DNA of 63,758 nucleotides, the filler included, from Stramenopiles sp. TOSAG23-3 (lineage: Eukaryota): assembly GCA_900128585.1 (NCBI GenBank). It is 9 parts of 9 records of this genome, joined end to end, with 100 filler letters (N's around TTAATTAATTAA, not from the genome) between each part and the next. Parts side by side here need not be neighbours in the genome. Positions count along the whole stretch, not along the records: positions 43,324 to 51,861 come from LT643007.1; 8 more parts are not named here. One strand, written 5' to 3'. This document shows, in pieces, positions 8,575 to 62,226 of this stretch (positions are counted from its first letter, which is position 1; each line of letters begins with the position of its first letter). The translations under genes and the position numbers were made by a program. A model generated the notes under the pieces. The model saw nothing but the letters and a program-made list of their open reading frames with translations. It made no database searches and was not told the origin of the DNA.

Positions 8575-8674
8575 NNNNNNNNNNNNNNNNNNNNNNNNNN
8601 NNNNNNNNNNNNNNNNNNTTAATTAATTAANNNNNNNNNNNNNNNNNNNNNNNNNNNNNNNNNNNNNNNNNNNN
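8575..8674. other. Artificial contig spacer N44-TTAATTAATTAA-N44
   Basis: 100-bp linker with stops in all six frames. Confidence 0.98.
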
Positions 8675-8675
8675 C

Positions 8676-9962
8676 CATGAGCAAAAACGCTTAACGTTGG
8701 AAACGGAAGAGCACATCGATGAAGGCGAATTAGGAGAGTCTGATCAGAGGATAAAGCTGCACCGCCTACAAGCTGAGCAAGGAAACGTTGATTCAATGCT
8801 TGCACTAGGTAACCTGTACTACTATGGTGGACGCGGTTTGCCGCGCGACCAAGTTCAGGCCTTGAGGTATTTTCGTATGGCAGGAAGTGCGCCCAATTTT
8901 CACGCATCGGGACAAATGGGGGTCGCCAACATGTTGTTGAAAGGAGAAGGCACGGAAAAGAACACAACCGCAGCAGTAGAGTGGTATGAAAAGTCGGCCG
9001 CGCAAAATCACACCCGGGCCCTCAATGGCTTGGGTTATTTATATTTTTTTGGGAACTCTTTGCCAAAGAATGATACGAAGGCGTTTGAGTACTTTAACAG
9101 GGCAGCAAAAAAAGGAACAGATGGCGACAGTCTTTTCAATGCCGGTTTCTGTTTGTACGACGGCACGGGTACGAAGAAGGATGTGCCGGCAGCTATAGCC
9201 CTTTTCAAGAGAGCAGGAAGAGACTTTGGACACTTCCCAGCGGTGCATAAAATGGGCGGAATCTCTCTCCGGGGTGAGGATGCTGGCGGCCGTGTCTGCT
9301 CGGCAGCTCTGGAGTACTTGCGCCCATCTGCGCAGCATGGGTCTTGGGGAAATGTTGTGCGCCGGGGCTTCAACAGGTTTTTATCAAACGATCCAACACG
9401 GGCTGCAATACGCTATTTGGAAGGTGCGGAACTTGGGTACGAAGTTGCCCAAAGTAACGCTGCATACATTTTTGATCGTGGTTACATTAATGAGGCAGAA
9501 TTTGCCGGTCGGCAACAAGATCGTGCGGTCGCAACGGCCACAACCCAGCGTGCAGATAGAGAGAAGAAAGTAAACGGTGATAAACTAGCCCTGAGGCTGT
9601 ATTTAATGGCACGAAAAGAAGGAAACAAGGAGCATGATCTGCGTATTGGTGATTTTTACTACTATGGTAAAGGGGGGATTTCTAAAAACTTTACTATGGC
9701 TGCAACATATTACCGGCAAGCATCTGCTTACGGAGTCGCACAGGCAGCCTATTCGCTGGGCACTATGTACGAAAAAGGGGAAATTAATGCTGGCGGAAAG
9801 GAAGTGCTTCCGTGTGATGGTAGAGCGGGGGGGGAATGCATTTCCGATAATGACGATTCTGCCAGAGGAACAGGCGCTGTGGAGAGGGCACTGGCGAAGA
9901 AATACTTCCAACGAACGTTGGAGCTTAATCCAGCACCGGAGGTAGAAGTTGTTATCAACCTG
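8676..9962 (+). CDS. Sel1-repeat region of a SEL1L/HRD3-like protein (partial; ends at an inversion junction)
   Basis: Multiple Sel1 repeats (AEQGNVDSMLALGNLYYYGGRGLPRDQVQALRYF; AELGYEVAQSNAAYI; RIGDFYYYGKGG; AAYSLGTMYEKG). Residues after about VINL are the antisense of the neighbouring ORF. Confidence 0.85.
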
Positions 9963-11446
9963 GTGCCGGCAAACCAGGGATCTTTCCCAACGTGTAAAAA
10001 CCCGTTATTTGCCACGATATTTTGTTTAAATTTCAGCGTGATATCGATCTTTCCGTTTATAAACACATCAATCTCGTACTTTATCGTTTTGTGACCCGGG
10101 TAGAGGCGCTCCGACGAGGGCGCAACAATGTCGGTGAGCAATAGGGCCTTTTCCAGGGCGGCAGACTCCGATGGAGCCGACTGCGAGTGGTTTCGGAATA
10201 CAAATGTTAGATGCGTCCAAACCCGTACAGGCAGTTCCGACCGGGACTCTTGACCCATGTCCGTGTTCTCGTTGCTGCTGACACGGACACTCAAGTGTCG
10301 AGAATGTGGCATCAACCATATCGAGGGTGTCCTGTGGCCATCCGAGGGATTTGGCCCTTTAAATATTAACGACCTATGTTTCCCTGTCGAGTCTTCCATC
10401 AAGTACACCCACATGCTAAAAGACCAGGACTTTTCCCCGTTTCTGGGCAAAACTTCACGGGGTAATGTTAACCCCCGCGTTCCATCCATAGACAAGACCC
10501 CGTCTACCGAATAATATTTATCCGCACCTGTCATATCGAAAGAAATGTCTTCGTTTGCCTTTTCGACAATAACATCGTCGCAAAGCTTCACGTTTATTGA
10601 GGAGTTGCTTTTAGCGAAAACATTACTACTGCTCGTGCGGCCGTATTGCTTCGCAACCACCCGGACATCGTACGGCCCATCTTCCCCAAGCCGGACCGAC
10701 ACGCTGTCCTTTTTCCCTACCGTAGCTTTCGTTTTGTTTAGCTCAAAGATTTTCTGGTCCTTCTCTTCTTTCGAAAGTTCGAAGATCTTTTTGCGCAGTC
10801 GAACTTGCAACTTGCCGATACTGAGTTCTTCACGAGGCGCTGCCCCTGTTTGGTTTGTCACCGTTACTTTCAGGTTCGTCTCGTCGAGCCATACCCCGCT
10901 ATAATTGGCTCCAATATTTCTGGAAAATATAAACACGTTATCGACTCCTTCCTTTGTACTTATGTTTGGGGTATTAGTTGCTTGGTTAAATGTGATCGTT
11001 AAGGTGGTATCACTATCGTCATCCAGTTCGCCAAAGAACCCAGTTGCGATTGCGTTAGAGACCGAAGGTTCAGAGCACAAGTCTTGGTCCAGCTTGCACC
11101 AAACCACTTGGCGGGGCTCAGGTTTTCGGTAAACCATCGCCTCAGCCGCCATCAAATCAGAGACGTCTTTTGTGCACAGGGAAAAATGAGTCACACAATG
11201 ACCGGAGTCCTTTTCGTATACGCAAACTTGTGGTCCGTTGACAGGGTCATCACAATGTTGCTTCAGGAAAGATTCGTAAGGGACATGCCAATCCAGGGCA
11301 ACGCGGTCAAAAACACAGGAAGAGGGAGACGAAGTGATGTTCAACTGAATTCCGGCGCCATCTTTACTGCTCTTCGCACCAAGCACTTCCTGCCAAGGAA
11401 AAAAGCGACATAAAAAACCCAGCAGAAATACTCCACGGCAGCGCAT
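9958..11446 (-). CDS. Signal peptide + LamG/concanavalin-A-like domain; probable N-terminal half of the same Sel1 gene
   Basis: ATG 11446 MRCRGVFLLGFLCRFFPWQEVLG. LamG motifs SWSFSMWVYL, RTPSIWL, WTHLTFVF, DVFINGK, LHVGKDPW. The domain breaks off before its usual last strands. Confidence 0.75.
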
Positions 11447-17248: not shown

Positions 17249-17348
17249 NNNNNNNNNNNNNNNNNNNNNNNNNNNNNNNNNNNNNNNNNNNNTTAATTAA
17301 TTAANNNNNNNNNNNNNNNNNNNNNNNNNNNNNNNNNNNNNNNNNNNN
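17249..17348. other. Artificial contig spacer
   Basis: N44-TTAATTAATTAA-N44. Confidence 0.98.
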
Positions 17349-18275: not shown

Positions 18276-19676
18276 ATGAGCGGAAACTCTTCTTCTTTGA
18301 CGCACAGTCTGGGCTGCGCGGCTCTTGGTGCAGTTGCGGGGGTGGCAGTATACACTCTATTGAAAGAGAAAAAAACGTCGGACCCCTCCTTCATTACCGA
18401 GGACCAACTGAACAATGACCCTGTGAAATTCCGGTACAAACCACCGACGGTATCGAAGAGGCCAAAAGTTATTCCGTCGAGCGACCCCATCCTTGAAAAG
18501 GACGCTGTCAAAAAGACTGTGTACGGGAAGCCCGTGGCGGGCTCCGTGACCGTAGACTTTGACTTCCTTCAAGGCTTCATGAAAGACACATTTGTCGCCT
18601 ACGGCGTAAAACCAACCGACGCAGACATATGCTCGGACGTTTTGATCGCTTCCGACAAACGGGGCATCGACTCTCACGGCATTGGGCGCCTAAAGGGGAT
18701 CTACTGCGAGCGCATGGACGCTGGCATCCTCGAAGCCCAGTCCACTTTGAAAATTTTGAAACAGACAAAGACGACTGCTGTTGTCGATGGCGGCGGCGGC
18801 ATTGGCCTGTGCATCGGCCCCAAATGCATGCAACTTGCGATTAAAAAAGCGAAGCAGCACGGAATCGGCATGGTTTGCGTGAGAAACTCAACGCACTACG
18901 GATTTGCAGGGTACTACCCCCTGATGGCGGAGAACTCGGGCTGCATTGGGATCAGTGGCACCAACGCCCGACCGTCGATTGCCCCAACCTACGGAGTAGA
19001 GCCGATGATGGGGACCAACCCTATTGTGTTCGGGATGCCGTCCACGGACGCGTTTCCTTTCGTTTTAGACTGTGCGACGTCGGTAAATCAGAGGGGGAAA
19101 ATCGAAAAGTACGCCCGCGAAGGAAAATCCACTCCGAAGGGGTGCGTTATTAGTAAGAATGGGGAGGAGCTGACGGACTCGAAAGCGATATTGCAGGCGT
19201 TTATTGAAAGGACAGCGGCGTTCACGCCGTTGGGTGGGGCAGGGCACCAGATGGCGGGGTACAAAGGCTACGGCTACGCTGCCGTAGTAGAGATCCTGTG
19301 TGCCGCCTTGCAGTCGAACGGGTGGGGTGAGCAGCTCGCCGACTCCTACATTGATGAGACGGGGAAAAAGGCCCGTCGCCCCAGTCTGCTGGGACATTTC
19401 TTCATTGCGATCGATATTGAATCCTTCACTTCCTTGGACGCGTTTCGCACTACTTGTGGGAAAATATTGAACGGGTTTCGCGACTCGGCGAAAGATCCTA
19501 CCGGCCCAGGACGCATATACACGGCTGGAGAGCCGGAACACATGGCCTGGTCTCACCGAAGCAACTATGGTGGAACCACCATCCCGCCCGCACTGATGAA
19601 GGGAATGCAAACCCTGCGCGATAATTTCGAAGACGAAGAATTGAAGAAGAAGTACGCGACGCTTCCGTTTGAGTGA
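18276..19676 (+). CDS. Ldh_2-family (type-2 malate/L-lactate) dehydrogenase with N-terminal membrane anchor
   Basis: SDKRGIDSHGIGRL, VRNSTHYGFAGYY, GTNPIVFGMP, LDCATS, GYKGYG, GHFFIAID, IYTAGEPE. Hydrophobic LGCAALGAVAGVAVYTLL at the N-terminus. Confidence 0.93.
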   Translation: MSGNSSSLTHSLGCAALGAVAGVAVYTLLKEKKTSDPSFITEDQLNNDPVKFRYKPPTVSKRPKVIPSSDPILEKDAVKKTVYGKPVAGSVTVDFDFLQGFMKDTFVAYGVKPTDADICSDVLIASDKRGIDSHGIGRLKGIYCERMDAGILEAQSTLKILKQTKTTAVVDGGGGIGLCIGPKCMQLAIKKAKQHGIGMVCVRNSTHYGFAGYYPLMAENSGCIGISGTNARPSIAPTYGVEPMMGTNPIVFGMPSTDAFPFVLDCATSVNQRGKIEKYAREGKSTPKGCVISKNGEELTDSKAILQAFIERTAAFTPLGGAGHQMAGYKGYGYAAVVEILCAALQSNGWGEQLADSYIDETGKKARRPSLLGHFFIAIDIESFTSLDAFRTTCGKILNGFRDSAKDPTGPGRIYTAGEPEHMAWSHRSNYGGTTIPPALMKGMQTLRDNFEDEELKKKYATLPFE

Positions 19677-22427: not shown

Positions 22428-25400
22428 TTAAAAACTATTACCGCCGGGGGCCCCGATTTGTTGAAATGACATTACCGTGGCTTTCACTGCCTCCTTTGAT
22501 ACGGACCATATGTCCGCACCAGCATTGTTTTGGAGCCAGAACAGCAGCGTGTCATTGTTCGGTCTCCAAGGCTGGGAGGTTAATGGGTTTTGGTCCCCAT
22601 AAACTTTGTGGCGACGTGCAAGGGACATCGCGTGCTGTCCCCGTGGAAGCATCTCCGCATGGCGCACGAAGGGTCTCAGTCCGGTAATGTCGCGGACGCA
22701 ATCGAACTGCTGCGACAGGTGTGGGCACACGACCACAAACGACAACGGCTGGTCGGTGTTTGTAAGCAACTTGACCATGTGCGCATACATCGATACAATC
22801 AGGTGGTGATCCGACGGCGGATGAGCGACGAAACTTCCATTCGAAGGGAAAAAGTCGAAAAACGACCCCAGGGAACCAAAGTACATGTCCGTGTCATAGA
22901 ATTGCGAACAGTAATTCTCCAACTGACGGTCGAAAGGGGACGCGAAACACTCGTGCGATACGCCGAAGTACCGCTGCAGTGTCATCATCACATTCGGCGT
23001 AATAGCCTGTTGGTGTGGTGGAACTAGTTTGCCTGCACTCTCGTACCGCTGAGTCATGTTGAATACGCGCCCCAGAAGCTTGTTTGTGTCGTGAGTGCCG
23101 TTTCTATACGTACGAACCAAATTGTCCAAAATTGACCTTGGCAGGATCAGGGCCTTTTGCATGAAGACGACACCGGCCTCGTCCTGGGCCATGTTGAATC
23201 TTTGGGGGTCGCAAATCGATATTTGCATCAGCGCGTCGGTCCAAAACTGGCCATTAAACTGGCGCGTTTGCCATTGCTTCATGTTGTGTATTTCAAACGC
23301 CAGGCTTGTGGCGTACTGTGTAAACTGCATGGTTACGTCATTCAACATCCTTCCGTCTGCGTTCGGAAACTGGCGAGCCAATGAACTGTGTACCATTTGG
23401 GCGACTTGCGCAACTTCTTGGCTGGGAAGCAAAGGGTCGACAGCCTGGACAGAGCTTGGGTTCCACACAAACTCACACCCTGCCCGATTTCGGAAGCAAT
23501 TGGCACGAAGCATCCACCGCATGAGCACATTTGCGATGATCGGCTTGTACGTCCTGTCCATTTTAGAGATGGAGTTCACCAGCTGCGCCATTTTGTCGTC
23601 CCGGAGCAAGGCAATTTGTGGGGTTTCCTCCGAATCAACGGCAGAATGTCCACCGTTGTTCCCGCTGTTCGCAGCACTCGACGGCCCATTGGTGTTGTTT
23701 GCCCTGTTAATGCCACTGTTGTTGTTTATATCGTCAGTTGGCCAGTTATTATTCAACGTGGACATGCTGCTTCCCGTGGACATGCTGCTTCCCGTAACGT
23801 TGTTGGCATTTCCCCCAAGGCTACCCCGTCCCATGTTTGCATTCACGTCGCCCCATTTGTTGTTCATCCCGCCCCAGGAGGAGGTGGTGCCGACACTGCC
23901 GTCGTTGTGGACGCCAACTTTGCTCGCATTTCCCATAAGAGAACTGTTCGCATTCACACCGCCAAGAGCTGGTTGGGTCTGCGGTGCGCTGCCTCCCAGA
24001 AAGATTTGCTCTTCGTCGTCGTCGTCGTCGAGCATCCCCATGTCTAGAAACGACAGGTTGATCGCAAGGTCGTCACCACCCCGACTAGGACGACGCGGGT
24101 TCTTCCCCGGAATCTGTTGCTGCGTCAGGTCGATCGTCTGCTGGTCAACTGGCTTTCCATTATTCGTCTTCAGCGGGGAGAACAAAGGCATGTTACCACC
24201 GCCCACATTCCCCGAACCGCTGAACGACTGGCTGTGCCTCATGGCGTCGTGCGGCAGCTGCGGGTGGGCCATACCATCGCTCCTAAGCGCCCCTGCGTGA
24301 GGGTTCTGCTGGATCACTTTCGATCGAACGGGCATTTGCAGCCCTGGCGGCGAGCCCGGAACTTCTTGCGCTTGGTTGCCAAACGACTGTTGCATGGACC
24401 TGTTCCCGGGCACTGGCTGGTGGGCAGAGGAAGGGGACAGCGGCACTTGCAATTGCTGGCGCTGGCTCGGGGGCGCACGGATCACGTCACTCTTCTCTCG
24501 CCCCACAGCAGGGGGGGGACGGGGGGGAACGGCAGTTTTCTTAACTGCCGGGGCAAATTGCTGCTGCGCATGGGCGGGCATATTCGGCTGTTTTCGCATG
24601 GGTTGCTGCGGCATTTGCCGCATTTGCTGACGCCCAAGTTGCTGGGCCGCATTGCGCTGTTGCTGCTGCGGCGGTTGCACCACCGGGCGGCCCGGTGGAG
24701 ATGGCTGCTTCTTGAAGCCATTCGGGTTGGGCTGCATAGGCTGTTGGCGTGGGGTGTTACGGTTGAGGACAGGTATTCGCGCTTGCCCGTTTCCAGGAAC
24801 GTAGGACCGATCGTTGTATTCATCGGAGTGGCTCGAGCGAGACTTTTTCTTCTTTTTCGTCACCACCGTGTCCCACGCTTCTTCTTCCTCTACCCTCGTC
24901 TGAGCGTTCTCTTCCTCCCGCAGAACATTGAATATTTCTTGCTTGGTCATCAAAGGCATGTCGGAGGCAGCAACGGCCTGTTCCTGCTGCTTTCTAGTCA
25001 CCGCCGCGATGTCCTGCTTCGTCTTCTCCTCGATAGCCCTCATTTTCTCCTCTTGCTTTTGCTTCTTTGCAGCCTGCTTTTTCTTTTCGGCCTCTTTCTT
25101 CTTGTTTTCTGCGCGACGCTTCTCTTCGTCTTTCTTCCGCTGGAGTGCGTCGGCGGCTTCTTTTCGGCGCTGGGCCTCCTCCTTTTTCGCTTGCTTGGCC
25201 GCTTGCTTCTTGGCGTCTTCGGCCGCCTTCTTTGCCGCTTCTTCCGCTTCTTTCTTCGCCTTCGCAGCCCGCTCTCGCTCCTTCTTTGCTTTCTTTTTAG
25301 CCGCCCGCTTTTTGGCTTTCTTCGATTTCCCTGCTTCTTTCTTCTCGTCTTCGTCGGACAGCAACCCTTCCGCAATAAAGAAGTCGTCGGTCGCCGCGGC

Positions 25401-25919
25401 GTTCTTCAACGCCGTGTGCTTTTGCTTTTTTGCATCCATTTCTATCTGTCGCTTCTTGAGGGTCAACAGCAGCTTCGCCCTTTGAATTTTCTTCCGGTTT
25501 CGAGAGCACCTTTGGATAGACGCTTTGTATTCGTACGTCATCGCGTAGGCGCATTCTATTAGGCCCTGGTCAACAAGCATGGCCAACGCGGTATCCCCCT
25601 TCTCGTCGATGGCGCCAGTGTCGGCATCGTGGTGGCACAGCAACAAGACGGTCTCTTCCTTGCCCGCTTTACCAGCGCAGAGCAGGGGGGTCAGCCCGCG
25701 GTCGTCCTTCTCCTCCAACCGGGCCCCAAAGCTAAGAAGCATCTTCACCAAGTCGTTCTGGCCCCGCTCGGCGGCGGCGCACAGGAAGCTTGGGTTCGGC
25801 GCTTCCGAGGGGGCGTGCACGGAGCAGCCCGACTCGATGAGGAGTTTCGCGCAATTCCATCGCTTGTTTGCGATCGCCTCCCACAGGGGAGGGGATGTAT
25901 TCGGCGTGTCCAGCGGAGC
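22428..25919 (-). CDS. Ankyrin + coiled coil + Q/N/P-rich linker + PCIF1/CAPAM-type methyltransferase domain (5'-truncated)
   Basis: Ankyrins (LCAAAERGQNDLVKMLLSFGA; GLTPLLCA; GDTAL). PCIF1 block ECFASPFD...YCS.FYDTDMYFGSLGSFFDF.P..GSF.AHPP, PLSFVVV, H......H, TLLFWLQN.AG...W. Confidence 0.88.
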   Translation of the reverse strand, partial: APLDTPNTSPPLWEAIANKRWNCAKLLIESGCSVHAPSEAPNPSFLCAAAERGQNDLVKMLLSFGARLEEKDDRGLTPLLCAGKAGKEETVLLLCHHDADTGAIDEKGDTALAMLVDQGLIECAYAMTYEYKASIQRCSRNRKKIQRAKLLLTLKKRQIEMDAKKQKHTALKNAAATDDFFIAEGLLSDEDEKKEAGKSKKAKKRAAKKKAKKERERAAKAKKEAEEAAKKAAEDAKKQAAKQAKKEEAQRRKEAADALQRKKDEEKRRAENKKKEAEKKKQAAKKQKQEEKMRAIEEKTKQDIAAVTRKQQEQAVAASDMPLMTKQEIFNVLREEENAQTRVEEEEAWDTVVTKKKKKSRSSHSDEYNDRSYVPGNGQARIPVLNRNTPRQQPMQPNPNGFKKQPSPPGRPVVQPPQQQQRNAAQQLGRQQMRQMPQQPMRKQPNMPAHAQQQFAPAVKKTAVPPRPPPAVGREKSDVIRAPPSQRQQLQVPLSPSSAHQPVPGNRSMQQSFGNQAQEVPGSPPGLQMPVRSKVIQQNPHAGALRSDGMAHPQLPHDAMRHSQSFSGSGNVGGGNMPLFSPLKTNNGKPVDQQTIDLTQQQIPGKNPRRPSRGGDDLAINLSFLDMGMLDDDDDEEQIFLGGSAPQTQPALGGVNANSSLMGNASKVGVHNDGSVGTTSSWGGMNNKWGDVNANMGRGSLGGNANNVTGSSMSTGSSMSTLNNNWPTDDINNNSGINRANNTNGPSSAANSGNNGGHSAVDSEETPQIALLRDDKMAQLVNSISKMDRTYKPIIANVLMRWMLRANCFRNRAGCEFVWNPSSVQAVDPLLPSQEVAQVAQMVHSSLARQFPNADGRMLNDVTMQFTQYATSLAFEIHNMKQWQTRQFNGQFWTDALMQISICDPQRFNMAQDEAGVVFMQKALILPRSILDNLVRTYRNGTHDTNKLLGRVFNMTQRYESAGKLVPPHQQAITPNVMMTLQRYFGVSHECFASPFDRQLENYCSQFYDTDMYFGSLGSFFDFFPSNGSFVAHPPSDHHLIVSMYAHMVKLLTNTDQPLSFVVVCPHLSQQFDCVRDITGLRPFVRHAEMLPRGQHAMSLARRHKVYGDQNPLTSQPWRPNNDTLLFWLQNNAGADIWSVSKEAVKATVMSFQQIGAPGGNSF

Positions 25920-26019
25920 NNNNNNNNNNNNNNNNNNNNNNNNNNNNNNNNNNNNNNNNNNNNTTAATTAATTAANNNNNNNNNNNNNNNNNNNNNNNNN
26001 NNNNNNNNNNNNNNNNNNN
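25920..26019. other. Artificial contig spacer
   Basis: N44-TTAATTAATTAA-N44. Confidence 0.98.
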
Positions 26020-34579: not shown

Positions 34580-34679
34580 NNNNNNNNNNNNNNNNNNNNN
34601 NNNNNNNNNNNNNNNNNNNNNNNTTAATTAATTAANNNNNNNNNNNNNNNNNNNNNNNNNNNNNNNNNNNNNNNNNNNN
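34580..34679. other. Artificial contig spacer
   Basis: N44-TTAATTAATTAA-N44. Confidence 0.98.
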
Positions 34680-43223: not shown

Positions 43224-43323
43224 NNNNNNNNNNNNNNNNNNNNNNNNNNNNNNNNNNNNNNNNNNNNTTAATTAATTAANNNNNNNNNNNNNNNNNNNNN
43301 NNNNNNNNNNNNNNNNNNNNNNN
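43224..43323. other. Artificial contig spacer
   Basis: N44-TTAATTAATTAA-N44. Confidence 0.98.
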
Positions 43324-43328
43324 AAAAG

Positions 43329-46300
43329 ATGGCACTATTAATAGGACTGCCAGGTTTTGGAAAAACTGACCTTATAAAAAACCTGCTGCTCCAACAGACA
43401 CAATTTCCGGGAGTTACAATTAAAGTGGTTAATCGTATTTCGTCGAAGATTTTGTGGGATTCAAGTAAGTTCCAACTTCATCGGCATTTCAGATATGTAA
43501 AGCCATTTATTGTAATTAATTTTCAGAACAATATGAACATGGAATCCATGTCTCATGGCCTCCTTTCACTTTTCCACTTGGTTGTAGAGCGATTCAATCT
43601 AACCGAAGAAACGGTGAACGCAGTTGATTTCGTCTACAATTCGTCAAAAAAATTCAACAGAAAAGAGTTATTGACAGAATTAAGAAGAAAGTGGAGGAAG
43701 GTTGAAAAGCAGTACATGAGTCGGGCAGGGCTACTTTCTGCGTTGGTGACTAAGTTTCATAATTCACTAGTTTCTTATAACTATTGCAAAGACAAAAAAT
43801 TCGGACTACTTTTGACGGGCAAGTTTATGGAAGTGCAGAAACTGAAGGAGATCGAAGACATTATTAGTAAGCATTTAGTACAAACAACCAAAGATATTAT
43901 AGAAAAACTTCGATCGCTTCCTGATAGCATTTTAGACATCTGTGAATGCTTGGACAACTTCAAGCATTTTGAAAGTATGGTATTTTCAGTATCGGGGAAC
44001 TTCGAAATTGGGGACATCAAAGGGCAGATTCAAGAACATTTTTTTGCGAGGGTAAACAAAAGTGCATCAAGTTTGCTTAAAGGGGGAAGTAGGAAGGAAA
44101 TATTGTTTTTGCGCAGTGACATAAATGTGCTGAGAGCTTTAGAAATGAAATTATACGAGCTTAAGATTATCGACGGCCAATCCACCGTTGAAGAAGTACT
44201 TGATAAAACATTACAAATCTACGACGACAAAACCAAAATAATGGCAAATCTTTGTGATTCAAAATTTATGCTCAAAATTTTCAACTTAAGAAAGTTTAAC
44301 GTGCGTCTGAAGGAATTATATCTCGCATCGAAGGAGAAACTGATTGAATGGTTAATTAACAATCTTCTCAAAATGCATCCTAAGACACATTACCATAACA
44401 TATTCCGTTCACTACAACTTCATGAAGATTCTACGTTCGAAGCGTTAGTAGCGACGTTGGTGTCCGCTGCTCGAAAACAGTATAATAAATGCTCTAATTT
44501 TTTGGATAATTTTCCGCTTCCAAGTGTTGAAAGTGTTGATATGCTCTTGTTACAACTCGAATATGCCAGGTGCAACCTTGGTAAATATTTTCCGAAAGAT
44601 CTGTGGCCAAAAACAATTATTCAAAATAAAATTGTTGATCCTTTGAGAAAAAGCATTTGCAAAACATCTGGCGTTGAAATTCACTTTCGTTCTCTGCAAG
44701 AACAATCAGTATATCTTGATTTTTTAGCGTGCAGTGAATACATTAGGAAGATGCAGCCGTTCCTAGTTCCAACATGGACCTCAAAAGTTGGTCATCATGT
44801 CACAGCATATTTGATAAATCCGTTGTTTAGTTGGGTGACAAAAAAACGTCTTGGTTTTGCGAAACTCAATAAATGTAGAGCGTGTTTCGAAAACAATATT
44901 TCTTCGTTTCAAAAGCGTTGCGAAAACATCATTAAATTTGTAAGATCAGTAAAGAAAATAAAGAAAACAACTCAACGCGAATATTTTATTCGACTTATTG
45001 GTAACGCTACCAATAAATGGATGAAACGTTGTGACAAACTTTCTGGTTCCATACTATTTCAATGCGACATCTATTCTCTCTTTCATGGGGCCTTTAAATC
45101 TAGTCAATATTATAATTTTTTGAAATGGTGCTTCACAACAGAAAATCTAGATACTCTTGAAAAATTTGAAAATCAGAATGCACCACAACTCCTTTGTGAA
45201 ACATATAGAAAATATTATTTACTTCAAAGGTGTGAAAAGTGTGTTGAAAATTGTCTGGCTGGAATTTTGAAAGAACTGAAAGATTGTGTTGAATTACAAA
45301 ATGCATTACTCAGTTTTCAATCGGGCCCTGTGAGACTAGACTTTGAAAAATCCATTATCCATCGCGTCAACGATTTATTGCAGCCCGTAGAGCAACAGAC
45401 TATGCATACTGCTATTTTGAAAATAGGTGAACTTCTTACTCTCTTCTGCGTATTTAAACTTTTCTGTCCACATACAAAAAATGAGTATCTTCCTAAAATC
45501 CGGGAAGGGGTTTCCATAAAATTTAAGTTTTTGAAGACTAAATACAAAGATGTTTTGACTCGAATGGACAGTATCGTTCCGACAAGAGAAGTATATACAA
45601 GTAGTACAACATATGGAGAAATGTGGTCGGCTGTTAACGAGGAAATCAACTTAGAAAAATATAGTTTAGTCAATACAAAGTTCATACGCGCAAGTGAGTT
45701 GTTTGGACTATTCATAACATCAACATTGGTTGAACAAGAAAATTGTATGTATTATGAGATTGGAGACTTTTTTGTGCACGCAAAAGCGTATAGAAAAATT
45801 AAAAAAATGGCAATTGTTTTTGCAGGAAGTTTCACGGAGGCTCTTTCCTCATACGATCTATACCGAATAGGAGTTCTGCGAAAAATTGCTTACATTATAA
45901 CAGAAAGATTAAATAGTGTATGCGCAAAACGATTTTTTGATCAATTGGATGATTGTAATTTTCATTCATATAAAATGATCCCCTGTTATTTGATCAGGAG
46001 AGCACTTCTCGACGTAGATAAATTGAAAGACGTATGGTTTAAGCTCAAAAAAATCAAGTCACTTGGCGTAAAGGAACTTGATTTGTTGGTGTATGGTTCC
46101 TATGAGTTGCAAGGTGGAATCGAAAGCCCGACAAGAATACTGATGCAGTATTTTTCTAAGTGTATAGAGGACATAAATAAGACAAAGTCCCAAATAATCT
46201 TTGAAATTATGCAAAACTGTTCTCTTCCCTCAGGATATGACGGTTGCATCGCTGATATTTCGAGATGCTTTAAGTATATTCATATTTATTCTGATCTCGA

Positions 46301-46874
46301 AGTTGAGAAAGTGAAAAGTTATGGCCATTATATTTCAGAGTTCGTGAGCACTGTCTCCAAATTTGTTCGAATGCAAATTGAAAGCAGGAACTTTTCTTGC
46401 TCGTTTTTGATCATTTCATTTCTTCGCTCTATTTTTGATATTTTGTGTCTTTTAAGTCCCGATGTTTGTGGTAAATACCATGATCAATTCAAAAATAAAT
46501 GTGATGAATTTATGGCCATACTGAATACAAAACTAGAGGAAAATCTGCCAAACACGTATATGAATGTTCAAACATGTAAAGACTTATTCGTTCACATCAA
46601 TTTTGCTGAGAAAGCAGTAAACATCCTTCCGTGTTTCCAAAAACGTTGTTTGGAGTTTAAAAAAGCATGGGATACTGCGTTGATGAATGTACTAAATCAG
46701 GCGGGAACAGTCGGGTTCAAATGCCCAGTGCTGAATGAGTTTTGTGCTGGAAAGTGGGGCAAGAACTACCCCCTTTTGGTATCTCGATTCAAAATAGAAG
46801 TTCTTAATAGTGGTGTGCCAACATCGGAGAGTCCACCCAAAAGACTCCGTCGACACACGAGTGCGCCAAGCTAA
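43329..46874 (+). CDS. Large AT-rich hypothetical protein with Walker-A-like motif and helical body (possibly 5'-truncated)
   Basis: 1181 stop-free codons in AT-rich DNA; LLIGLPGFGKT at the start; NLS-like PPKRLRRH at the end. Confidence 0.75.
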   Translation: MALLIGLPGFGKTDLIKNLLLQQTQFPGVTIKVVNRISSKILWDSSKFQLHRHFRYVKPFIVINFQNNMNMESMSHGLLSLFHLVVERFNLTEETVNAVDFVYNSSKKFNRKELLTELRRKWRKVEKQYMSRAGLLSALVTKFHNSLVSYNYCKDKKFGLLLTGKFMEVQKLKEIEDIISKHLVQTTKDIIEKLRSLPDSILDICECLDNFKHFESMVFSVSGNFEIGDIKGQIQEHFFARVNKSASSLLKGGSRKEILFLRSDINVLRALEMKLYELKIIDGQSTVEEVLDKTLQIYDDKTKIMANLCDSKFMLKIFNLRKFNVRLKELYLASKEKLIEWLINNLLKMHPKTHYHNIFRSLQLHEDSTFEALVATLVSAARKQYNKCSNFLDNFPLPSVESVDMLLLQLEYARCNLGKYFPKDLWPKTIIQNKIVDPLRKSICKTSGVEIHFRSLQEQSVYLDFLACSEYIRKMQPFLVPTWTSKVGHHVTAYLINPLFSWVTKKRLGFAKLNKCRACFENNISSFQKRCENIIKFVRSVKKIKKTTQREYFIRLIGNATNKWMKRCDKLSGSILFQCDIYSLFHGAFKSSQYYNFLKWCFTTENLDTLEKFENQNAPQLLCETYRKYYLLQRCEKCVENCLAGILKELKDCVELQNALLSFQSGPVRLDFEKSIIHRVNDLLQPVEQQTMHTAILKIGELLTLFCVFKLFCPHTKNEYLPKIREGVSIKFKFLKTKYKDVLTRMDSIVPTREVYTSSTTYGEMWSAVNEEINLEKYSLVNTKFIRASELFGLFITSTLVEQENCMYYEIGDFFVHAKAYRKIKKMAIVFAGSFTEALSSYDLYRIGVLRKIAYIITERLNSVCAKRFFDQLDDCNFHSYKMIPCYLIRRALLDVDKLKDVWFKLKKIKSLGVKELDLLVYGSYELQGGIESPTRILMQYFSKCIEDINKTKSQIIFEIMQNCSLPSGYDGCIADISRCFKYIHIYSDLEVEKVKSYGHYISEFVSTVSKFVRMQIESRNFSCSFLIISFLRSIFDILCLLSPDVCGKYHDQFKNKCDEFMAILNTKLEENLPNTYMNVQTCKDLFVHINFAEKAVNILPCFQKRCLEFKKAWDTALMNVLNQAGTVGFKCPVLNEFCAGKWGKNYPLLVSRFKIEVLNSGVPTSESPPKRLRRHTSAPS

Positions 46875-47045
46875 TGTTGTACCTATTTCCATCTGCCGCA
46901 TTTGTCTATAATCGAAGGATATATGTCTTCTCAAAGAGAGAGCCGCAAACGCAAAAAGAAACATTCTCTACATTTGCAAAGCGAGTTTGGCATGTAAAGA
47001 CTATTATATCTAGAGAAGCTCATCACTATTTTCAAAAAAAACAAA

Positions 47046-47138
47046 ATGCCTAATTCTTAGTGTGCTAAAAAGTTTTAATAAAATAAGAGAATGTCTTCTC
47101 TTAGTATGCCTAAAATTTTATAATAAAATAAGAGAATG
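47046..47138 (+). repeat. Imperfect two-unit tandem repeat
   Basis: TCTTAGT.TGC.TAAAA...TAATAAAATAAGAGAATG occurs twice. Confidence 0.75.
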
Positions 47139-47210
47139 ATCAATGAGAGCCGCGAGCTAATACGCAAACTAATGATGCTAGATATTTAAGGATTAATATG
47201 TAGCATATAA

Positions 47211-47515
47211 TTAAAAACAAAACAATTGCTGTTATTAAGGTATTTAAAATTTGTGCCCAGTAAGTTTTACTTCCTATTTGATGTACTGCGATTTATTTCT
47301 GCTCTTGTAGTTTTCTTAATCAATTTACTCATTTAGTCTTCTTTATTTCCCTCTTGTATACTCCATGCATGATCAGAAGTGATATTACGATGTCAAATAT
47401 CCCATGGTCAACTTCTTTATCCGGTATCTCGCTCATAGATGAGTCAGAACTTGTGTGATTTATCAAGCAGCGGCGTAAAAGTTTTTAAGGCGCTCGTTTT
47501 CTGTCTTGTAAATCG
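47211..47515 (+). mobile_element. Dispersed repeat family, diverged copy at the end of a longer degenerate element
   Basis: Degenerate terminus TTAAAAACAAAACAATTGCTGTTATTAAGG, then alignable to 34910-35175 (ATGTACTGCGA, ACTCCATGCATGATC, GTCAACTTC..ATCCGGT.TCTC.CTCATAGATGA.TCAG, GCAGCGGCGTAA, CTGTCTTGTAAATC). Confidence 0.85.
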
Positions 47516-48183
47516 TTCAAGGAATGGTCGTTAATGGGTTGAATTCAGGTCGGTATGCGGAACCGTCATTAGGGGGTTTTGCTGCGGTGGTAAAGGTTCG
47601 GTGTGCAGTGCTGTGGTTGTGATGTTGAGCATTAGATTAATTGCTGGCATGCGACGGCGTTGTTGTGGGCGTTATTATCTCATCCTAGTGGAGGGACCCA
47701 GATCCGCTTCCACCTCCCTTGTCACTTCGTCCAAGGGTGTAATTACTGGGGTCAGGGGGGGGAGCTTCTTGCCTGCTGTAGATGCCCAGATCCACTTCCT
47801 CCAGCATTGCCGATTCGTCCGAGGATGGCACTAGTAGAGTCAGGGCGTCCGATGGTTACGAAGGAGCTTGAACTTCACTGTCGTCCTCTGGCGTGAACCT
47901 CTGGGGTCGCGTTATCTGATGATTGCGTTGAGGGTTGTACTACTGTGTCGTGGGCCGAAGTTGACAGTAGGGGACAAGAATCTACTGTGGTAGTGGGGGG
48001 GGTTTGGGTGGGTAAATACTATACAGCTACAACACGCCTGCTAACAAAATATTGCTTATCATAGTACCTTGTACGTGAATTCACAGTATTTCTTCTTTAA
48101 CTGCTTGTCCCACTTGTACTTTTTATTGACAGAATCTTCCTGTCCTTCATACGTAGCAGCTCCCGGAAGACTGTGACGGCTTG

Positions 48184-48393
48184 TTAAGCGTTCTCGACTC
48201 CGTTTCTCACCCGCTTGCTGTTGTATTTGGAAAAGGTCTGTACAATATCGGATGAAAGAAGTTTAATCGTTGGGATGGCGGCTAGTGCTATGTCACATGT
48301 GATGATTGTGTCTCTGTCTGATGCATTCACTAGGGTGAACGACTTTGCTATTCTGTCGATGAGCAGGTCCTTTTGTTTTGATAACTTTACCAT
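48184..48393 (-). pseudogene. Short or decayed ORF with AT-rich virus-like leader
   Basis: ATG preceded by TATTTAAGTATAACAATATAAATAAA; decayed P/T/S-rich coding-like sequence continues to about 47520. Confidence 0.35.
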
Positions 48394-48698
48394 TTTATTT
48401 ATATATTGTTATACTTAAATACATATTATTAATGAGATTTATGAGATTTATGCCCCGCGGAAAAACGGAAAAAAAGAACAGGATTTTACTTTTGTTCTAC
48501 AGAGTCTGACCCACTCCTACCAACTTCCGGCACTTGGCACTTTGACTTGTGCGTATGTGGAGAAAACCTAAATAATGGATCTTTTTTCCGTTTTTCCGTA
48601 GATCTTTTTATTAAATCTGGATTTGTGTATATCCTCCCGGGCACAACCCCAGTGAGAAAGGAAAACAACATTATTTGCCGATCAACATAGAGTTCTGT

Positions 48699-49157
48699 TC
48701 AGTCAAGCCTGTCGGTAACAAACGGCACCTCTGGGACAGTTTGCACGTGATCCTCGTCCACTTTCAACCTCCAACCCTTAAGCAACTTCTTTTTTGTTGA
48801 GGAATTTGTGTACACGTCGTTCTCATAGGACATATTGGTTTCGAAAAACGCTATCATAGCCGTGGCTTTCATCTCCTTGCTGTTTTGTTTTCGTTTCGGC
48901 ATGTTTGCAAACTCTCGTGATTGACGTAGGTGTTTTACAATGGCAGCTAGGCTCCAATCGGTGTCGCTGCATCTGCCCCTAGAATCCTTATAAATATGCT
49001 TCGTTTTTCAAACAATGTGGTGAAGATATCATGGATGTCATACGAATCTTGTAAATAATCCAAGCTTCGTTCTTTCACACTGCCCGGTACATATCGTTCA
49101 GTATTGTACTTATGAATCGTTCTTGAGTATTAATAGGTACTGGATCAAAATATTAGC
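48699..49157 (-). pseudogene. Frameshifted C-terminal fragment resembling a D5-like (SF3) primase-helicase of NCLDV/Polinton-like elements
   Basis: Three frames join to give NILIQYLLILKND/KYNTERYVPGSVKERSLDYLQDSYDIHDIFTTLFEKR/..SDTDWSLAAIVKHLRQSREFANMPKRKQ...FFETN...LLKGWRLK. Family recognised from recalled motifs only. Confidence 0.55.
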
Positions 49158-49593
49158 GCCCCGACCTCCCCGATGTACGACCCCCTGACCTTCTCCCGCC
49201 TGAGCTGGCTCGGCACCCCATCACTCTCTGTGCTTCGCTCGGGCCATTTGATTGGAAACCAGTCAGGTGAATTTTCTTTTTTCTGCTTCAATTTCCTTTT
49301 ATCTTCTCGCTTTTGTGAAAGCCATCAAAAAATAATAATTGTCCTTTAATCTCCTTGACCCACCATTGTCCCCAGTTATACAAAATATAATTCATATTTT
49401 TTCTTGTAATATAACTTTAGATAAATATCTAAATATCAGCATATATTTTGTTTTAAGAATATATTATATTAAATTAAATAACGGGTTATGTTTTTTGTGC
49501 GAACCTCTTATTAAAGTTGACCCGGTCTACCGCGGTAGACTATACAGCACCACAGATTAACAAATCAACCCAGGTTTCTTTGCTGCTAGCTTG

Positions 49594-50709
49594 TTACTCC
49601 CATTCTTCATTGCAACTATCTGGAGCTGGCTGCATATACTTTCTCCGTGCCAGTATAGCTGCTTCCAGAGAGCTTAGGCTTTTTTTGCCGTCAGAATTCG
49701 ATGCATTTTGTTTGTTATTAAGCCTAGCTTCTATATCTTTTGCAGATATTTTTTTCCTTTTATGGTTACGAATCGATTCCATCAGCGGTGAATCTGTACC
49801 TTCTACATTTCTGTCCTCTGATCTGGAGTTTATCTTTACAGGTCGAAGTAATGTTTTTTCTGCCTTTGTTTTCTTGGTGGATTTGATATCATTTAGAAAA
49901 GGCAACGCCGGTCTTGAGTACTGTTCACGCGCAGATTTACGGGAGTAAAGCAGGGGTTTTGGAGATTGGCATTTGCCGACTTTTTTTTGCATGGGTAATG
50001 AAGGTTCAGGCGAACGAGTCAAACGACGGTCGGTTTCAATGTTCTTCGACACACTTTGCACTTCTTTGTCAATGCCAGCGTTGGCTACTATAGACACTTC
50101 CTTCGGGTCCAATGCATTGGCCATTGTTGTTTTCTGAGTGCGATTTCTTGCTTTAGAAAGGTTTTCCATATAATCTAACACATTTTGTGCCGTTAATACA
50201 TTGACCTCAATTCTTCCGAAAATGTCACCGGAAGCTGTGTTGGCATTGCTTGTGACAGCTTGTACAAAACCTTTCCCGTACATCGTGGCAAAGACCTCCT
50301 TAATTTCAGTTAATTCTGGTATCCTATCAGGAGTTTTTCCTGCCGAGCATATTATTGTGGAAGCAAAATCTTTCATCGTCAAAGGGCAGGGCTCATCTTC
50401 TTTAAAAAATTTCACACACCTTAGCACTCGGGTAAAGATAGATAGTAGTTTCTCGTAAACTTCGATCAGGTTCTCTTCTAGAATAACGACTTCTGTCTTT
50501 GTTCTGGCCTTTGTCTCATCACCAGAGTGCAACAAGTTGATAATGTCATCTTTTTGCAACTTCAACTTCCTTTTATAAGTTTCAATAAGCCTATGGATCC
50601 GGACACATCCTGTGCCAAGGCTTGTTTTAAGGCGGGTTGAGCAGTCAACAATATTTTCGCCCTTGATCCACTCAAAAAGAGCACTTAATGGTTGCAACAC
50701 ACCTTCCAT
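49594..50709 (-). CDS. IST1-domain (ESCRT-III-like) protein with WH2/C/A-like C-terminus
   Basis: IST1 pattern LKTSL....RI.......K.....KDDIINLL..G....ARTKTEVVILEENLIEVYE.L...CP...KDFASTII......IPELTEIKEVF...YGKGF; tail LEAAILARRKYMQPAPDSCNEEWE. Confidence 0.8.
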   Translation of the reverse strand: MEGVLQPLSALFEWIKGENIVDCSTRLKTSLGTGCVRIHRLIETYKRKLKLQKDDIINLLHSGDETKARTKTEVVILEENLIEVYEKLLSIFTRVLRCVKFFKEDEPCPLTMKDFASTIICSAGKTPDRIPELTEIKEVFATMYGKGFVQAVTSNANTASGDIFGRIEVNVLTAQNVLDYMENLSKARNRTQKTTMANALDPKEVSIVANAGIDKEVQSVSKNIETDRRLTRSPEPSLPMQKKVGKCQSPKPLLYSRKSAREQYSRPALPFLNDIKSTKKTKAEKTLLRPVKINSRSEDRNVEGTDSPLMESIRNHKRKKISAKDIEARLNNKQNASNSDGKKSLSSLEAAILARRKYMQPAPDSCNEEWE

Positions 50710-51577
50710 TCGTCAAAATCAAACACCCCAATTATTTACTAAGTGCTTGAAAGAAATACGTTTTTATCTATAAAAGCCTTCGTGCACAGAATGAACAGAA
50801 AGAACGTCTGTAATAGGGAATGTGCACACGGGTTGAGCCTGCATTTTGATGTTTACCTTGAGTACTTCTTTACGAAACTCTTACTTCGCGAAAGAAGCAT
50901 TTTTTTGGCGGAGGCTAGTTTTTCATTGGTAGGTGGTGGTGGATAATAATATAATAATAATACAGCCACACCCGTTCGGGCGAGACCCCGAGATAAGGTT
51001 TTGGTGTGATTAAATACTTTTACTTACTATACAAGCTACAAGTATTGTTAAGAATAGGGTTATTATTTATGTTAACTGTCTTCACGTCCACGAATTAATT
51101 ATTAAGGTATCAAGAGCAAACAGCTATATGCTATCATAGCTGAAGAAGACGAGAAGCAGCAGATACCGATCGATGATTGAAGAAACCGCACTGCAGTACG
51201 AAAATATACTGCAATGAGAAAAAGAATTATTTAAAACGATTGTTTTGATCTTAGAAGTTTTGGGAGTACGAGTACTCGAACGGATATTGAAAGAGCCATA
51301 GAAACGGAACGAAAAGTGCGATACTTGAAGTTTTGATTTCTAGAAACCTAACCTAAGTTTATACTATCTATACTACATAGAGAAGCGGAAGAAAAAACAG
51401 AAGGTAAGACCCCCCCCCTATAGACTATTAATTCAATCACTGACAACCAGCGTCAACACGTTCAATCTGTATACGTCACACAGAGCGACGATAGGGTATC
51501 GCCCAACCAATCTGCCCCTCAAGTGGGACAGATCGCTTGGAAGAAATCAAAGAGGGGGTCTTTTACGCTTTAAAGTA

Positions 51578-51861
51578 ATGTTTTCTTTTCTTGCAAGTTG
51601 GTGGAATTGGGCAGAAGCGCCTCAAGTATCAGATCCAAACACACCTATTGGAATGAGCCCGGACCCTCACCCTGATAATAGGCGTTTTGAACAAGTCGCA
51701 GGACAAAATCAAAATGAAAACGCATATGTCAGCATAGACAATTTGCCAGTCCCTCTGTGGACGCAAGAGGTGTCACCTGAATCGTGGGAGTTTAACTTCA
51801 AACGAGCCTATAACGCCTGTCCCGAGTATGAGTTGCTCCACATTTACGAATATCTTATTAT
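51578..51861 (+). CDS. Hypothetical protein, 3'-truncated
   Basis: ATG 51578; frame open into the spacer; no recognised domain. Confidence 0.5.
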
Positions 51862-51961
51862 NNNNNNNNNNNNNNNNNNNNNNNNNNNNNNNNNNNNNNN
51901 NNNNNTTAATTAATTAANNNNNNNNNNNNNNNNNNNNNNNNNNNNNNNNNNNNNNNNNNNN
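51862..51961. other. Artificial contig spacer
   Basis: N44-TTAATTAATTAA-N44. Confidence 0.98.
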
Positions 51962-57486: not shown

Positions 57487-57622
57487 GTAAGTCGTACTAT
57501 TTGGTCGTCCAGTTTGCTTTTCAAAGGTAGTTATAAATTATTGAATTCTTTACAATTTTAGAACCACATGAATGGTAACTCAATACTTAACTGGTATTCA
57601 TTTTCTAATAAGATACTTTTAG
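57487..57622 (+). other. Candidate intron just upstream of the CFAP298 start (5'UTR or micro-exon)
   Basis: GTAAGT donor at 57487, TTCTAAT branch-like site at about 57603, TTTTAG acceptor at 57622. Confidence 0.45.
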
Positions 57623-57657
57623 TACGATTTAGCTTAGCTGCTTTAAATTATTTGACC

Positions 57658-58539
57658 ATGGTTAAATTTCACTTCAAAAAGTCCGACACGGAACAGTTCC
57701 TTGCGGAAGGGAAGACCACCGAGAAGAACGAAGACGTAATTACCCGCCTTGTAAAAATTTGGAACACTCGATTAAGGGTTGAACGTCTGTGCGGGTACGC
57801 TCTTCAGCTCGCTGATTATGGGCCTGCAAAGCCGGCGAAAGAGCGTGGTCTGGATCACCTGCAAGAGGAGGCAGACCAGGCTGCGTTGGCCCACGGTGAA
57901 GCAGTTCCCGATCGTAAACGAAACGAATATTACCAAGAAGACCCGTTGGGTGGGCGCACTGGTAACCGTTGCAAACCAGAATTAGCCGCCGTCATCAAGA
58001 AAACCGTGGAAGATGCGAGGGCGGCGGTCCACGCGAACCAAGTCAAAATGAAGATCCCACTGACGCTAGAAACAATGCAAGAAAAGATCGACAACATTCG
58101 TGGCGCCGTAATGATTTGCTACCCCATGGGTTTGCCCCCGTACGACGAAGTCCGCCAAGAGATTGAGGACAACGCGGAAATACCAGGGATGGGAGGGCAA
58201 GCTGTCCTTGACCCGGAAGACGTCAGTATGTGGTGGGCCGGAAAAGAGTTTGTTCGCGGGAAATTAATCTCGGACAGGTTGGGCAGAAACGAGAAGACCA
58301 AAATTGTTATCAAGCTACAAAAGAAGGGAGCTGGCGCACCAGCTCGTGAACCAGCAGTCACGGAAGACGAAAGGAAGGCGATGATGGCCCATTATTTCAA
58401 AAAGCAAGAAGAAGCAAAAAAGTTAGCCGATGATGACGACGATGGGTACACGAACTCGTCATGGGCCGATTCAAAAGCCCTGAAAAAGGGCTTGACTGGA
58501 ACTGGCAGCGTCGCCTTTCGCCCGGGTATGCGCATGTAA
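57658..58539 (+). CDS. CFAP298: Cilia- and flagella-associated protein 298 (C21orf59/FBB18)
   Basis: MV.FHFKK....QFL, RGAVMICYPMGLPPYD, WWAGKE, GRNEKTKIVIKL.KKG.GAPAREP, MM.HYFKKQEE, NSSWAD...LK. Confidence 0.95.
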   Translation: MVKFHFKKSDTEQFLAEGKTTEKNEDVITRLVKIWNTRLRVERLCGYALQLADYGPAKPAKERGLDHLQEEADQAALAHGEAVPDRKRNEYYQEDPLGGRTGNRCKPELAAVIKKTVEDARAAVHANQVKMKIPLTLETMQEKIDNIRGAVMICYPMGLPPYDEVRQEIEDNAEIPGMGGQAVLDPEDVSMWWAGKEFVRGKLISDRLGRNEKTKIVIKLQKKGAGAPAREPAVTEDERKAMMAHYFKKQEEAKKLADDDDDGYTNSSWADSKALKKGLTGTGSVAFRPGMRM

Positions 58540-60494: not shown

Positions 60495-60594
60495 NNNNNN
60501 NNNNNNNNNNNNNNNNNNNNNNNNNNNNNNNNNNNNNNTTAATTAATTAANNNNNNNNNNNNNNNNNNNNNNNNNNNNNNNNNNNNNNNNNNNN
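60495..60594. other. Artificial contig spacer
   Basis: N44-TTAATTAATTAA-N44. Confidence 0.98.
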
Positions 60595-62126: not shown

Positions 62127-62226
62127 NNNNNNNNNNNNNNNNNNNNNNNNNNNNNNNNNNNNNNNNNNNNTTAATTAATTAANNNNNNNNNNNNNNNNNN
62201 NNNNNNNNNNNNNNNNNNNNNNNNNN
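62127..62226. other. Artificial contig spacer
   Basis: N44-TTAATTAATTAA-N44. Confidence 0.98.

Follow-up and report, generated by a model that had tools for sequence, protein, structure and literature searches.

The window, by which we mean the whole 63,758-nt stretch of DNA analysed here, encodes on its minus strand a divergent IST1-family protein with a non-canonical tail. The last part of this protein had been read as a WH2-WH2-C-A tail resembling those of Arp2/3 activators. We favor a different account of it. On balance, the helices of the tail are probably diverged docking motifs, and their resemblance to WH2-WH2-C-A is probably largely coincidence.

The gene had been placed at 49594..50709, and ORF listing and translation recovered a single ORF of 371 aa there on the minus strand. 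All six strings that the original prediction quoted from the protein were found in the translation: PFLNDIK at aa 270-276, LLRPVK at aa 287-292, SPLMESIRNHKRKK at aa 307-320, KDIEARLNNK at aa 324-333, SLSSLEAAILARRKYM at aa 344-359, and DSCNEEWE at aa 364-371. The features of the gene, from the start codon to the stop, are as follows.

49594..50709, minus strand: whole ORF (P0001), ATG to TAA, 371 aa plus stop, with codon bias in frame throughout
50146..50628, minus strand: IST1 (ESCRT-III-type) core, aa 28-188, from Pfam PF03398, AlphaFold and Foldseek
49915..50145, minus strand: disordered linker, aa 189-265, pLDDT about 46-52, without secondary structure
49834..49902, minus strand: first WH2-like segment, aa 270-292 (PFLNDIK ... 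LLRPVK), sub-threshold for Pfam WH2 and predicted disordered
49750..49791, minus strand: second WH2-like segment, aa 307-320 (LMESIR, then KRKK), with an exact six-residue WH2 helix pattern
49711..49743, minus strand: short predicted helix, aa 323-333 (KDIEARLNNK), half MIM1-like; AlphaFold helix at 323-331, pLDDT about 75
49633..49680, minus strand: predicted helix of amphipathic character, aa 344-359 (SLSSLEAAILARRKYM), put forward as the 'C' helix; AlphaFold helix at 345-359, pLDDT 73-80
49597..49620, minus strand: DSCNEEWE at the C terminus, acidic and with Trp as the last residue but one, as in the published acidic-Trp feature

The IST1 core

The first 175 or so residues had been assigned to IST1, and the Pfam match, the family relatives, and the AlphaFold and Foldseek results all agreed with this. 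Pfam Ist1 (PF03398) matched aa 28-188 over profile positions 1-161 of 164, with a score of 80.7 bits (E 1.5e-22) against a gathering cut-off of 33.6 bits. Human IST1 chains were matched by phmmer at E of about 1e-3. An exhaustive HMMER search of 1.84 billion representatives produced 514 relatives at E<=1e-3, every one of them through the core, and the best identity was 30%. Pfam Ist1 was carried by all 150 of the relatives listed (514 in all).

A model was built by AlphaFold from an alignment of 66 of the IST1 relatives, and its pLDDT was >90 over about aa 25-190. In Foldseek, the core was superimposed on the N-terminal domains of human and yeast IST1 (3frs, 3frr, 3ggz and 8v2q) with TM of 0.82-0.90 and rmsd of 1.8-2.3 A. 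Among the matches were 3frs (TM 0.90, rmsd 1.8 A) and 8v2q_B (E 8.8e-8). The N-terminal 190 aa form the closed helical core of IST1.

Two relatives for which the full result was available scored 197.8 and 176.7 bits with Ist1, more than twice the 80.7 bits of our protein, which is therefore a divergent member of the family, possibly a paralogue.

The protein has in common with canonical IST1 (human IST1/CHMP8 and yeast Ist1) the family and fold of the core, and also the layout, in which a helical core is followed by a disordered linker and short C-terminal helices. The human IST1 chains are 364/366 aa long, versus 371 aa here. On the other hand, the core is divergent (best identity 30%), a terminal MIM1 is undetectable, and an acidic-Trp end lies beyond the last helix.

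In this family the tail can be replaced or extended. Of the 150 relatives listed (514 in all), four carried FORGETTER1-type zinc ribbons, three the EDR4 zinc ribbon, one EF-hands and one DUF6824. Many of the IST1 relatives among the matches listed were 600-1300 aa long, and many were without a terminal MIM1. WH2 or an acidic-Trp end was present in none of the 150 IST1-domain proteins among these matches. In plants there is a named IST1-LIKE series.

The tail and the MIT-docking motif

After the core, the protein continues for about 180 aa (182), which are rich in Lys and Ser and predicted to be disordered. Within the tail AlphaFold predicted helices only at aa 323-331 and 345-359, where the pLDDT was 73-80 versus about 48 elsewhere. 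The linker contained 14% Pro over aa 220-270, with no poly-Pro run; this content does not discriminate between the readings, since the linkers of canonical IST1 proteins are also Pro-rich in the consensus lines.

Exhaustive HMMER over the 1.84 billion representatives gave no match to the tail, all 514 matches being through the core. A word-index search of the whole protein against a 5.8-billion-protein index gave 0 matches at E<=1e-3 among 2529 candidates, and a search of the same index with aa 262-371 gave 0 matches at E<=10 among 242 candidates. A scan of bacterial and archaeal contigs produced 142 pattern matches, of which 0 were confirmed. In two of the HMMER matches (P0053 and P0108) the alignment extends into the tail, but both proteins end in unrelated sequence.

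A MIM1-type motif was found in the last 30 residues of 67 of the 150 relatives listed (514 in all), and was not seen by the same pattern in 83 of these 150. The consensus was of the D-F/Y-D-x-L-x-A-R-F-x-A-L-K-K type, and a profile was built from the 67 relatives. On the 182-aa post-core region of our protein, the best score of this profile was only -1.4 bits, at EARLNN (aa 327-332), and a score as good was reached by 249 of 5000 shuffles. This was in agreement with the view of the original prediction that the protein does not have a canonical MIT-interacting end. The original prediction had added that KDIEARLNNK may be a decayed MIM1; the best site of the profile fell within it, but with only this score.

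The MIM1 profile was also run over six frames of the linked piece (43324-51861). No MIM1 was found in any of them; the best score, 4.1 bits, was on the wrong strand. A missed downstream exon carrying MIM1 was therefore considered unlikely.

When the protein was aligned with canonical IST1 proteins by MAFFT, aa 344-357 were placed beneath their MIM1 block. This counts for the docking-motif reading. The raised pLDDT of this last helix may simply have been carried over from MIM1 columns in the alignment on which the model was folded.

According to passages of PMC9477494, human IST1 contains a Type 2 element (316-343) followed by a helical Type 1/3 element (344-366), and at least seven binding modes of MIT domains exist. 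The two tail helices of our protein lie at about the place of these two MIT-interacting elements, with the canonical MIM1 consensus not kept. Since the MIM1 profile recognizes neither helix, the term 'diverged MIM' stands here for an argument from position and not for a demonstrated motif.

From what is typical of the family, the IST1 core would form membrane-bound ESCRT-III polymers with a CHMP1-type partner. The flexible tail would extend from the polymer and recruit cofactors. The two tail helices may dock MIT domains in a non-canonical mode, or may dock a lineage-specific partner. The likeness to WCA may owe something to the usual ending of an IST1 tail, an amphipathic helix whose own end is basic. 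If the tail is merely a diverged docking region, the protein would be another IST1-like paralogue from an unsampled protist lineage, and its modest value would lie in the loss of MIM1 with the core kept.

The docking-motif reading leaves the acidic-Trp end unexplained. Also weighing against it are the co-occurrence of two WASP-family features in 4 of 200,000 shuffles and the WH2-bearing neighbors in the Atlas, both described below.

Comparison of the tail with WASP-family modules

The tail might instead be a working, highly diverged WH2-(WH2)-C-A module and a putative Arp2/3 activator. We consider this unlikely. In such a module, the WH2-like segments would supply actin monomers (one or two), the helix at aa 345-359 would bind the barbed-end groove of either Arp2 or Arp3, and Trp370 would insert into a pocket of ARPC1 or Arp3. 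Branched actin would in this way be nucleated directly at the membrane tubule on which IST1 has polymerized. The docking of C and A would follow the mechanism described in passages of PMC10944109.

The order of elements at the C terminus is the one found in the WASP-family class I nucleation-promoting factors (NPFs), namely WASP, WAVE, WASH, WHAMM/JMY, WAML and WAWH: one or more short hydrophobic helices, then an amphipathic helix closed by a basic triplet, and last an acidic end with Trp. Nevertheless, the labels given to these elements in the original prediction ('WH2-like', 'LKKT-type' and 'C-A') passed no curated threshold, and the formal tests failed.

The Pfam WH2 profile, which had been recommended as a check, remained under its cut-off of 23.1 bits everywhere on the protein. 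It was absent at E<=10 from the whole protein and from the 106-aa tail. On the isolated 58-aa fragment aa 266-323, a score of 14.0 bits (E 0.04) was obtained with no single stretch passing, the best sub-threshold stretch being aa 272-298, aligned to positions 9-28 of the 28 in the profile. This sub-threshold match is a point in favor of the module; the shortfall from 23.1 bits and the absence from the longer sequences are points against it. Pfam WH2 was also found in 0 of the 150 IST1 relatives among the matches listed (514 in all).

The WASP-family patterns of Kollmar et al. 2012 (PMC3298513, section 11) were applied to the tail. Only the helix core and the acidic-Trp end matched; there was no LKKV motif, and neither the complete WH2 pattern nor the strict C pattern was found. 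The first WH2-like segment deviated at two of the six helix positions and had an 11-residue linker before LRPV, the nearest approach to an LKKV-type motif; it failed the WH2 pattern. In the second segment, LMESIR at aa 309 was an exact six-residue WH2 helix core, with no L[KR][KR][VTA] after it. The two segments were not significantly similar to each other, their similarity being equalled by 225 of 1000 shuffles.

In the published C domain pattern (PMC3298513), three VILM residues spaced by three are followed by an R/K doublet or triplet and then by a VILMY residue. Read by eye, the last helix has L345 and L353 in register, followed by RRK and Y358, and the middle hydrophobic position is occupied by E349. 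The strict C pattern fails because of this Glu. Four of the five features of the general C pattern were still present by eye (the first and third hydrophobic residues, the RRK triplet and the terminal Tyr/Met), which speaks for the module. A relaxed C pattern was uninformative, as it was matched by 126 of the 150 IST1 relatives listed (514 in all).

Three queries (the 106-aa tail and its parts aa 266-323 and aa 334-371) were run against the PDB by phmmer; none detected a sequence relationship to a WH2 or WCA chain at E<=10, and the results were at chance level or nil. This, the failed patterns and the lack of a homologue of the tail in the databases searched argue against a WCA module. The tail is further unlike those of class I NPFs in its very short acidic region and in having no poly-proline region ahead of it.

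The acidic end with a penultimate Trp was as predicted: Trp is residue 370 of 371, and four D/E are found within the last 10 residues. It is a weak acidic region, however, with a net charge of -3 over the last 15 aa. The chain extends 12 residues beyond the last helix to this end. The acidic-Trp end was present in 0 of the 150 IST1 relatives listed (514 in all), in 1 of 120 CFAP298 proteins and in 2 of 61 ORFs of the window. The corresponding counts for the WH2 helix core were 2 of the 150 IST1 relatives listed (514 in all), 0 of 120 and 2 of 61. The set of 61 ORFs includes the IST1 ORF itself.

Other uses of such an end were also considered by eye. An LC3-interacting motif requires three residues after the aromatic, and a single residue follows it here. 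The ALIX-binding CHMP4-type motif and the W-acidic motif for kinesin light chain require Leu or Met at set positions, which are occupied here by Asn or Glu. All three candidates were rejected.

A further point for the module came from shuffling. When the tail was shuffled 200,000 times with its composition kept, 0.73% of the shuffles contained the helix core, 0.44% an acidic-Trp end, and 4 of them both; the true chance level is above these figures, since the patterns were picked post hoc and an IST1 tail already supplies a basic-ended amphipathic helix.

Neighbors of the tail in the Atlas, which is based on a language model, included WH2-bearing clusters. With aa 262-371, rank 2 was a WHAMM-like cluster with WH2 on 81% of its members (0.76), and rank 3 was a 67-aa cluster with WH2 on 19%. 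With aa 334-371, which lacks the WH2-like segments, the same 67-aa cluster was again found at rank 3 (0.78). These neighbors favor the module, but every score was <0.8, and scores of 0.76-0.79 were taken as leads and not as evidence, because by the Atlas's own calibration shuffled proteins reach this level a third of the time.

A setting for such a protein can be found in animal cells, where, in excerpts of the papers concerned, IST1 and spastin act in the fission of endosomal recycling tubules and the WASH complex is named in the same papers. This makes the module plausible in terms of cell biology, and is no evidence for WCA.

The original prediction had gone further and proposed that ESCRT-III membrane remodeling and branched actin nucleation could be coupled in one protein. 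The IST1 half of this proposal was supported, and the half that depends on an Arp2/3-activating tail failed the formal tests, so that the coupling as a whole is improbable. It is likewise doubtful that one polypeptide is both an ESCRT-III subunit and an Arp2/3 NPF, in which the core polymerizes on a tubule and the tail activates Arp2/3.

If it were so, membrane constriction and the generation of force by branched actin would be united within a single polypeptide. It would be the first ESCRT-III protein with an actin-nucleating activity of its own, would join two machineries in a naturally occurring fusion, and would represent a new class of NPF. The MIM1 helix of IST1 may in that case have been converted into a C helix. 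According to passages of PMC3298513, the subfamilies of WASP are defined by a family-specific N-terminal domain, and by this definition of the field the protein, whose VCA would follow an N-terminal domain new to the family, would found a further WASP subfamily. Among the open-access papers listed, no title or abstract described an IST1-WH2 or IST1-VCA fusion. Those listed that name both IST1 and WH2 dealt, by their titles and abstracts, with LEM2, CHMP7 and unrelated topics.

The basic region

More unlikely again is the possibility that the Lys/Arg-rich stretch at aa 262-343 is a basic targeting region, with the helices and the acidic end having no actin role. Such a region would serve in nuclear import, or in binding to nucleic acid, acidic membrane or microtubules.

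The composition of aa 262-343 is consistent with this, with 24% K+R versus 13% D+E, KRKK included, and so is the predicted disorder of the region. The KRKK cluster presumably fits a classical monopartite import signal, and a motif of the nuclear-localization type may suit it equally well as a place in the second WH2-like segment. Among the closest structures were 6e8g and 8v2q, which by their titles are IST1-CHMP1B copolymers bound to ssDNA and ssRNA. The two helices and the terminal Trp, on the other hand, are left unexplained by a basic targeting region.

Reading frame and sequence context

The least probable of the alternatives is that the tail is decaying or is not expressed as read. A redundant IST1 paralogue might be drifting after the loss of MIM1, or an undetected intron or an assembly error might lie at the end of the ORF. 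The low Ist1 score relative to the two relatives (80.7 versus 197.8 and 176.7 bits) is in line with decay. So are the lack of an orthologue among the 1.84 billion representatives, although relatives of 79% identity exist for CFAP298, and the origin of the sequence in short assembled pieces.

The GC3 of the IST1 gene was 0.39, under the range of 0.45-0.66 in 16 other ORFs. This would also be expected from a decaying gene, but the low GC3 belongs to the piece, since the other ORF of 43324-51861 had a GC3 of 0.35.

Codon usage was scored in units of log2 likelihood ratio per codon, with 16 further long ORFs from the window as the training set. In frame, the Ist1 part scored +0.176, the linker +0.234 and the last 106 codons (the tail) +0.165, compared with 0.06-0.28 for the 16 training ORFs. 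Off frame, the tail scored -0.24 and -0.48, within a range of -0.24 to -0.56 over the parts of the gene. One antisense frame of the tail scored +0.187, so that the codon test supports the reading of the tail and does not prove it.

The frame stays open for 371 codons with this positive bias in both linker and tail, introns appear to be rare (most of the window's other genes consist of one long ORF), and there is no alternative MIM1 exon downstream, all of which argue against decay or misreading.

The window consists of nine pieces with eight N44-TTAATTAATTAA-N44 linkers between them. The IST1 gene is on the 8,538-base piece 43324-51861, which has a GC of 0.386. As the window is made of joined pieces, physical linkage to the IST1 gene holds only within 43324-51861. 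The same piece carries a 5'-truncated ORF of at least 1182 aa, for which no match was found in Pfam or the PDB. It also includes 2.7 kb without a long ORF, and a short partial ORF at the far end. Scans of the whole window against Rfam and for tRNA gave no match.

The genes seen elsewhere in the window, ciliary, kinesin and TFIIS genes among them, lie on pieces other than 43324-51861. By tetranucleotide usage, the CFAP298-bearing piece was the closest to the piece with the IST1 gene (r = 0.91). The source is an intron-poor, flagellated eukaryote.

The relatives of CFAP298 in the searched database, in which the window's own protein is present, included unnamed (metagenomic) proteins of 65-80% identity. 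The best named relatives were of 48-53% identity, and came chiefly from stramenopiles, and also from a dinoflagellate and green algae.

Composition of the window

The window contained eight linkers of the form N44-TTAATTAATTAA-N44:

8575-8674, 17249-17348, 25920-26019, 34580-34679, 43224-43323, 51862-51961, 60495-60594 and 62127-62226, linkers

These showed that the window consists of nine separate assembled pieces joined end to end, the first seven of about 8.5 kb each and the last two of 1,532 bases. Gene order across a linker carries no meaning as neighbourhood.

The piece carrying the IST1-like gene

43326-46874, plus strand, long ORF of at least 1182 aa, its frame already open where the piece begins
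46875-49593, gap of 2.7 kb between two convergent genes
49517-49948, plus strand, antisense ORF of 143 aa

The ORF at 43326-46874 was the only long one physically linked to the IST1-like gene. It begins with a P-loop-like GxxGxGKT, had a GC3 of 0.35, and gave no Pfam hit above threshold and no PDB match. The gap that follows it was unusually long for an assembly elsewhere dense in ORFs. The longest stop-to-stop frame in it was at most 102 aa, and an Rfam scan at gathering thresholds returned no match there.

The 143-aa ORF overlaps, on the opposite strand, the tail of the IST1-like gene (its candidate WH2-WH2-C-A region). The codon bias of the tail (log2 likelihood ratio per codon) was as high in one antisense frame (+0.187), which may not be that of the 143-aa ORF, as in the sense frame (+0.165). 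We took the high antisense value to be the usual mirror effect, although this strand could still be coding.

CFAP298 and the source lineage

57568-58539, plus strand, CFAP298 gene

The CFAP298 protein of the window itself was present in the protein database, as a 293-aa entry starting at a downstream Met. Its identity was 65-80% to unnamed metagenomic relatives and only 48-53% to named ones, mostly stramenopiles. Judged from this protein, the source lineage seems to be without a named close relative in the database.

Genes on other pieces

8796-10094, plus strand, Sel1-repeat ORF
9749-11446, minus strand, Laminin_G_3 ORF
18276-19676, plus strand, Ldh_2 (malate/L-lactate dehydrogenase type 2) ORF, domain complete
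22428-25742, minus strand, single 1104-aa ORF with N-terminal ankyrin repeats and a C-terminal PCIF1_WW domain

The Sel1-repeat and Laminin_G_3 ORFs share about 350 bases on opposite strands, and one of the two probably has an over-extended end. About 93 additional N-terminal residues precede the Ldh_2 domain; these may be a targeting peptide, or the start may have been called too far upstream. In the 1104-aa ORF, the ankyrin repeats are joined to a domain of the cap-specific adenosine methyltransferase family (PCIF1_WW).
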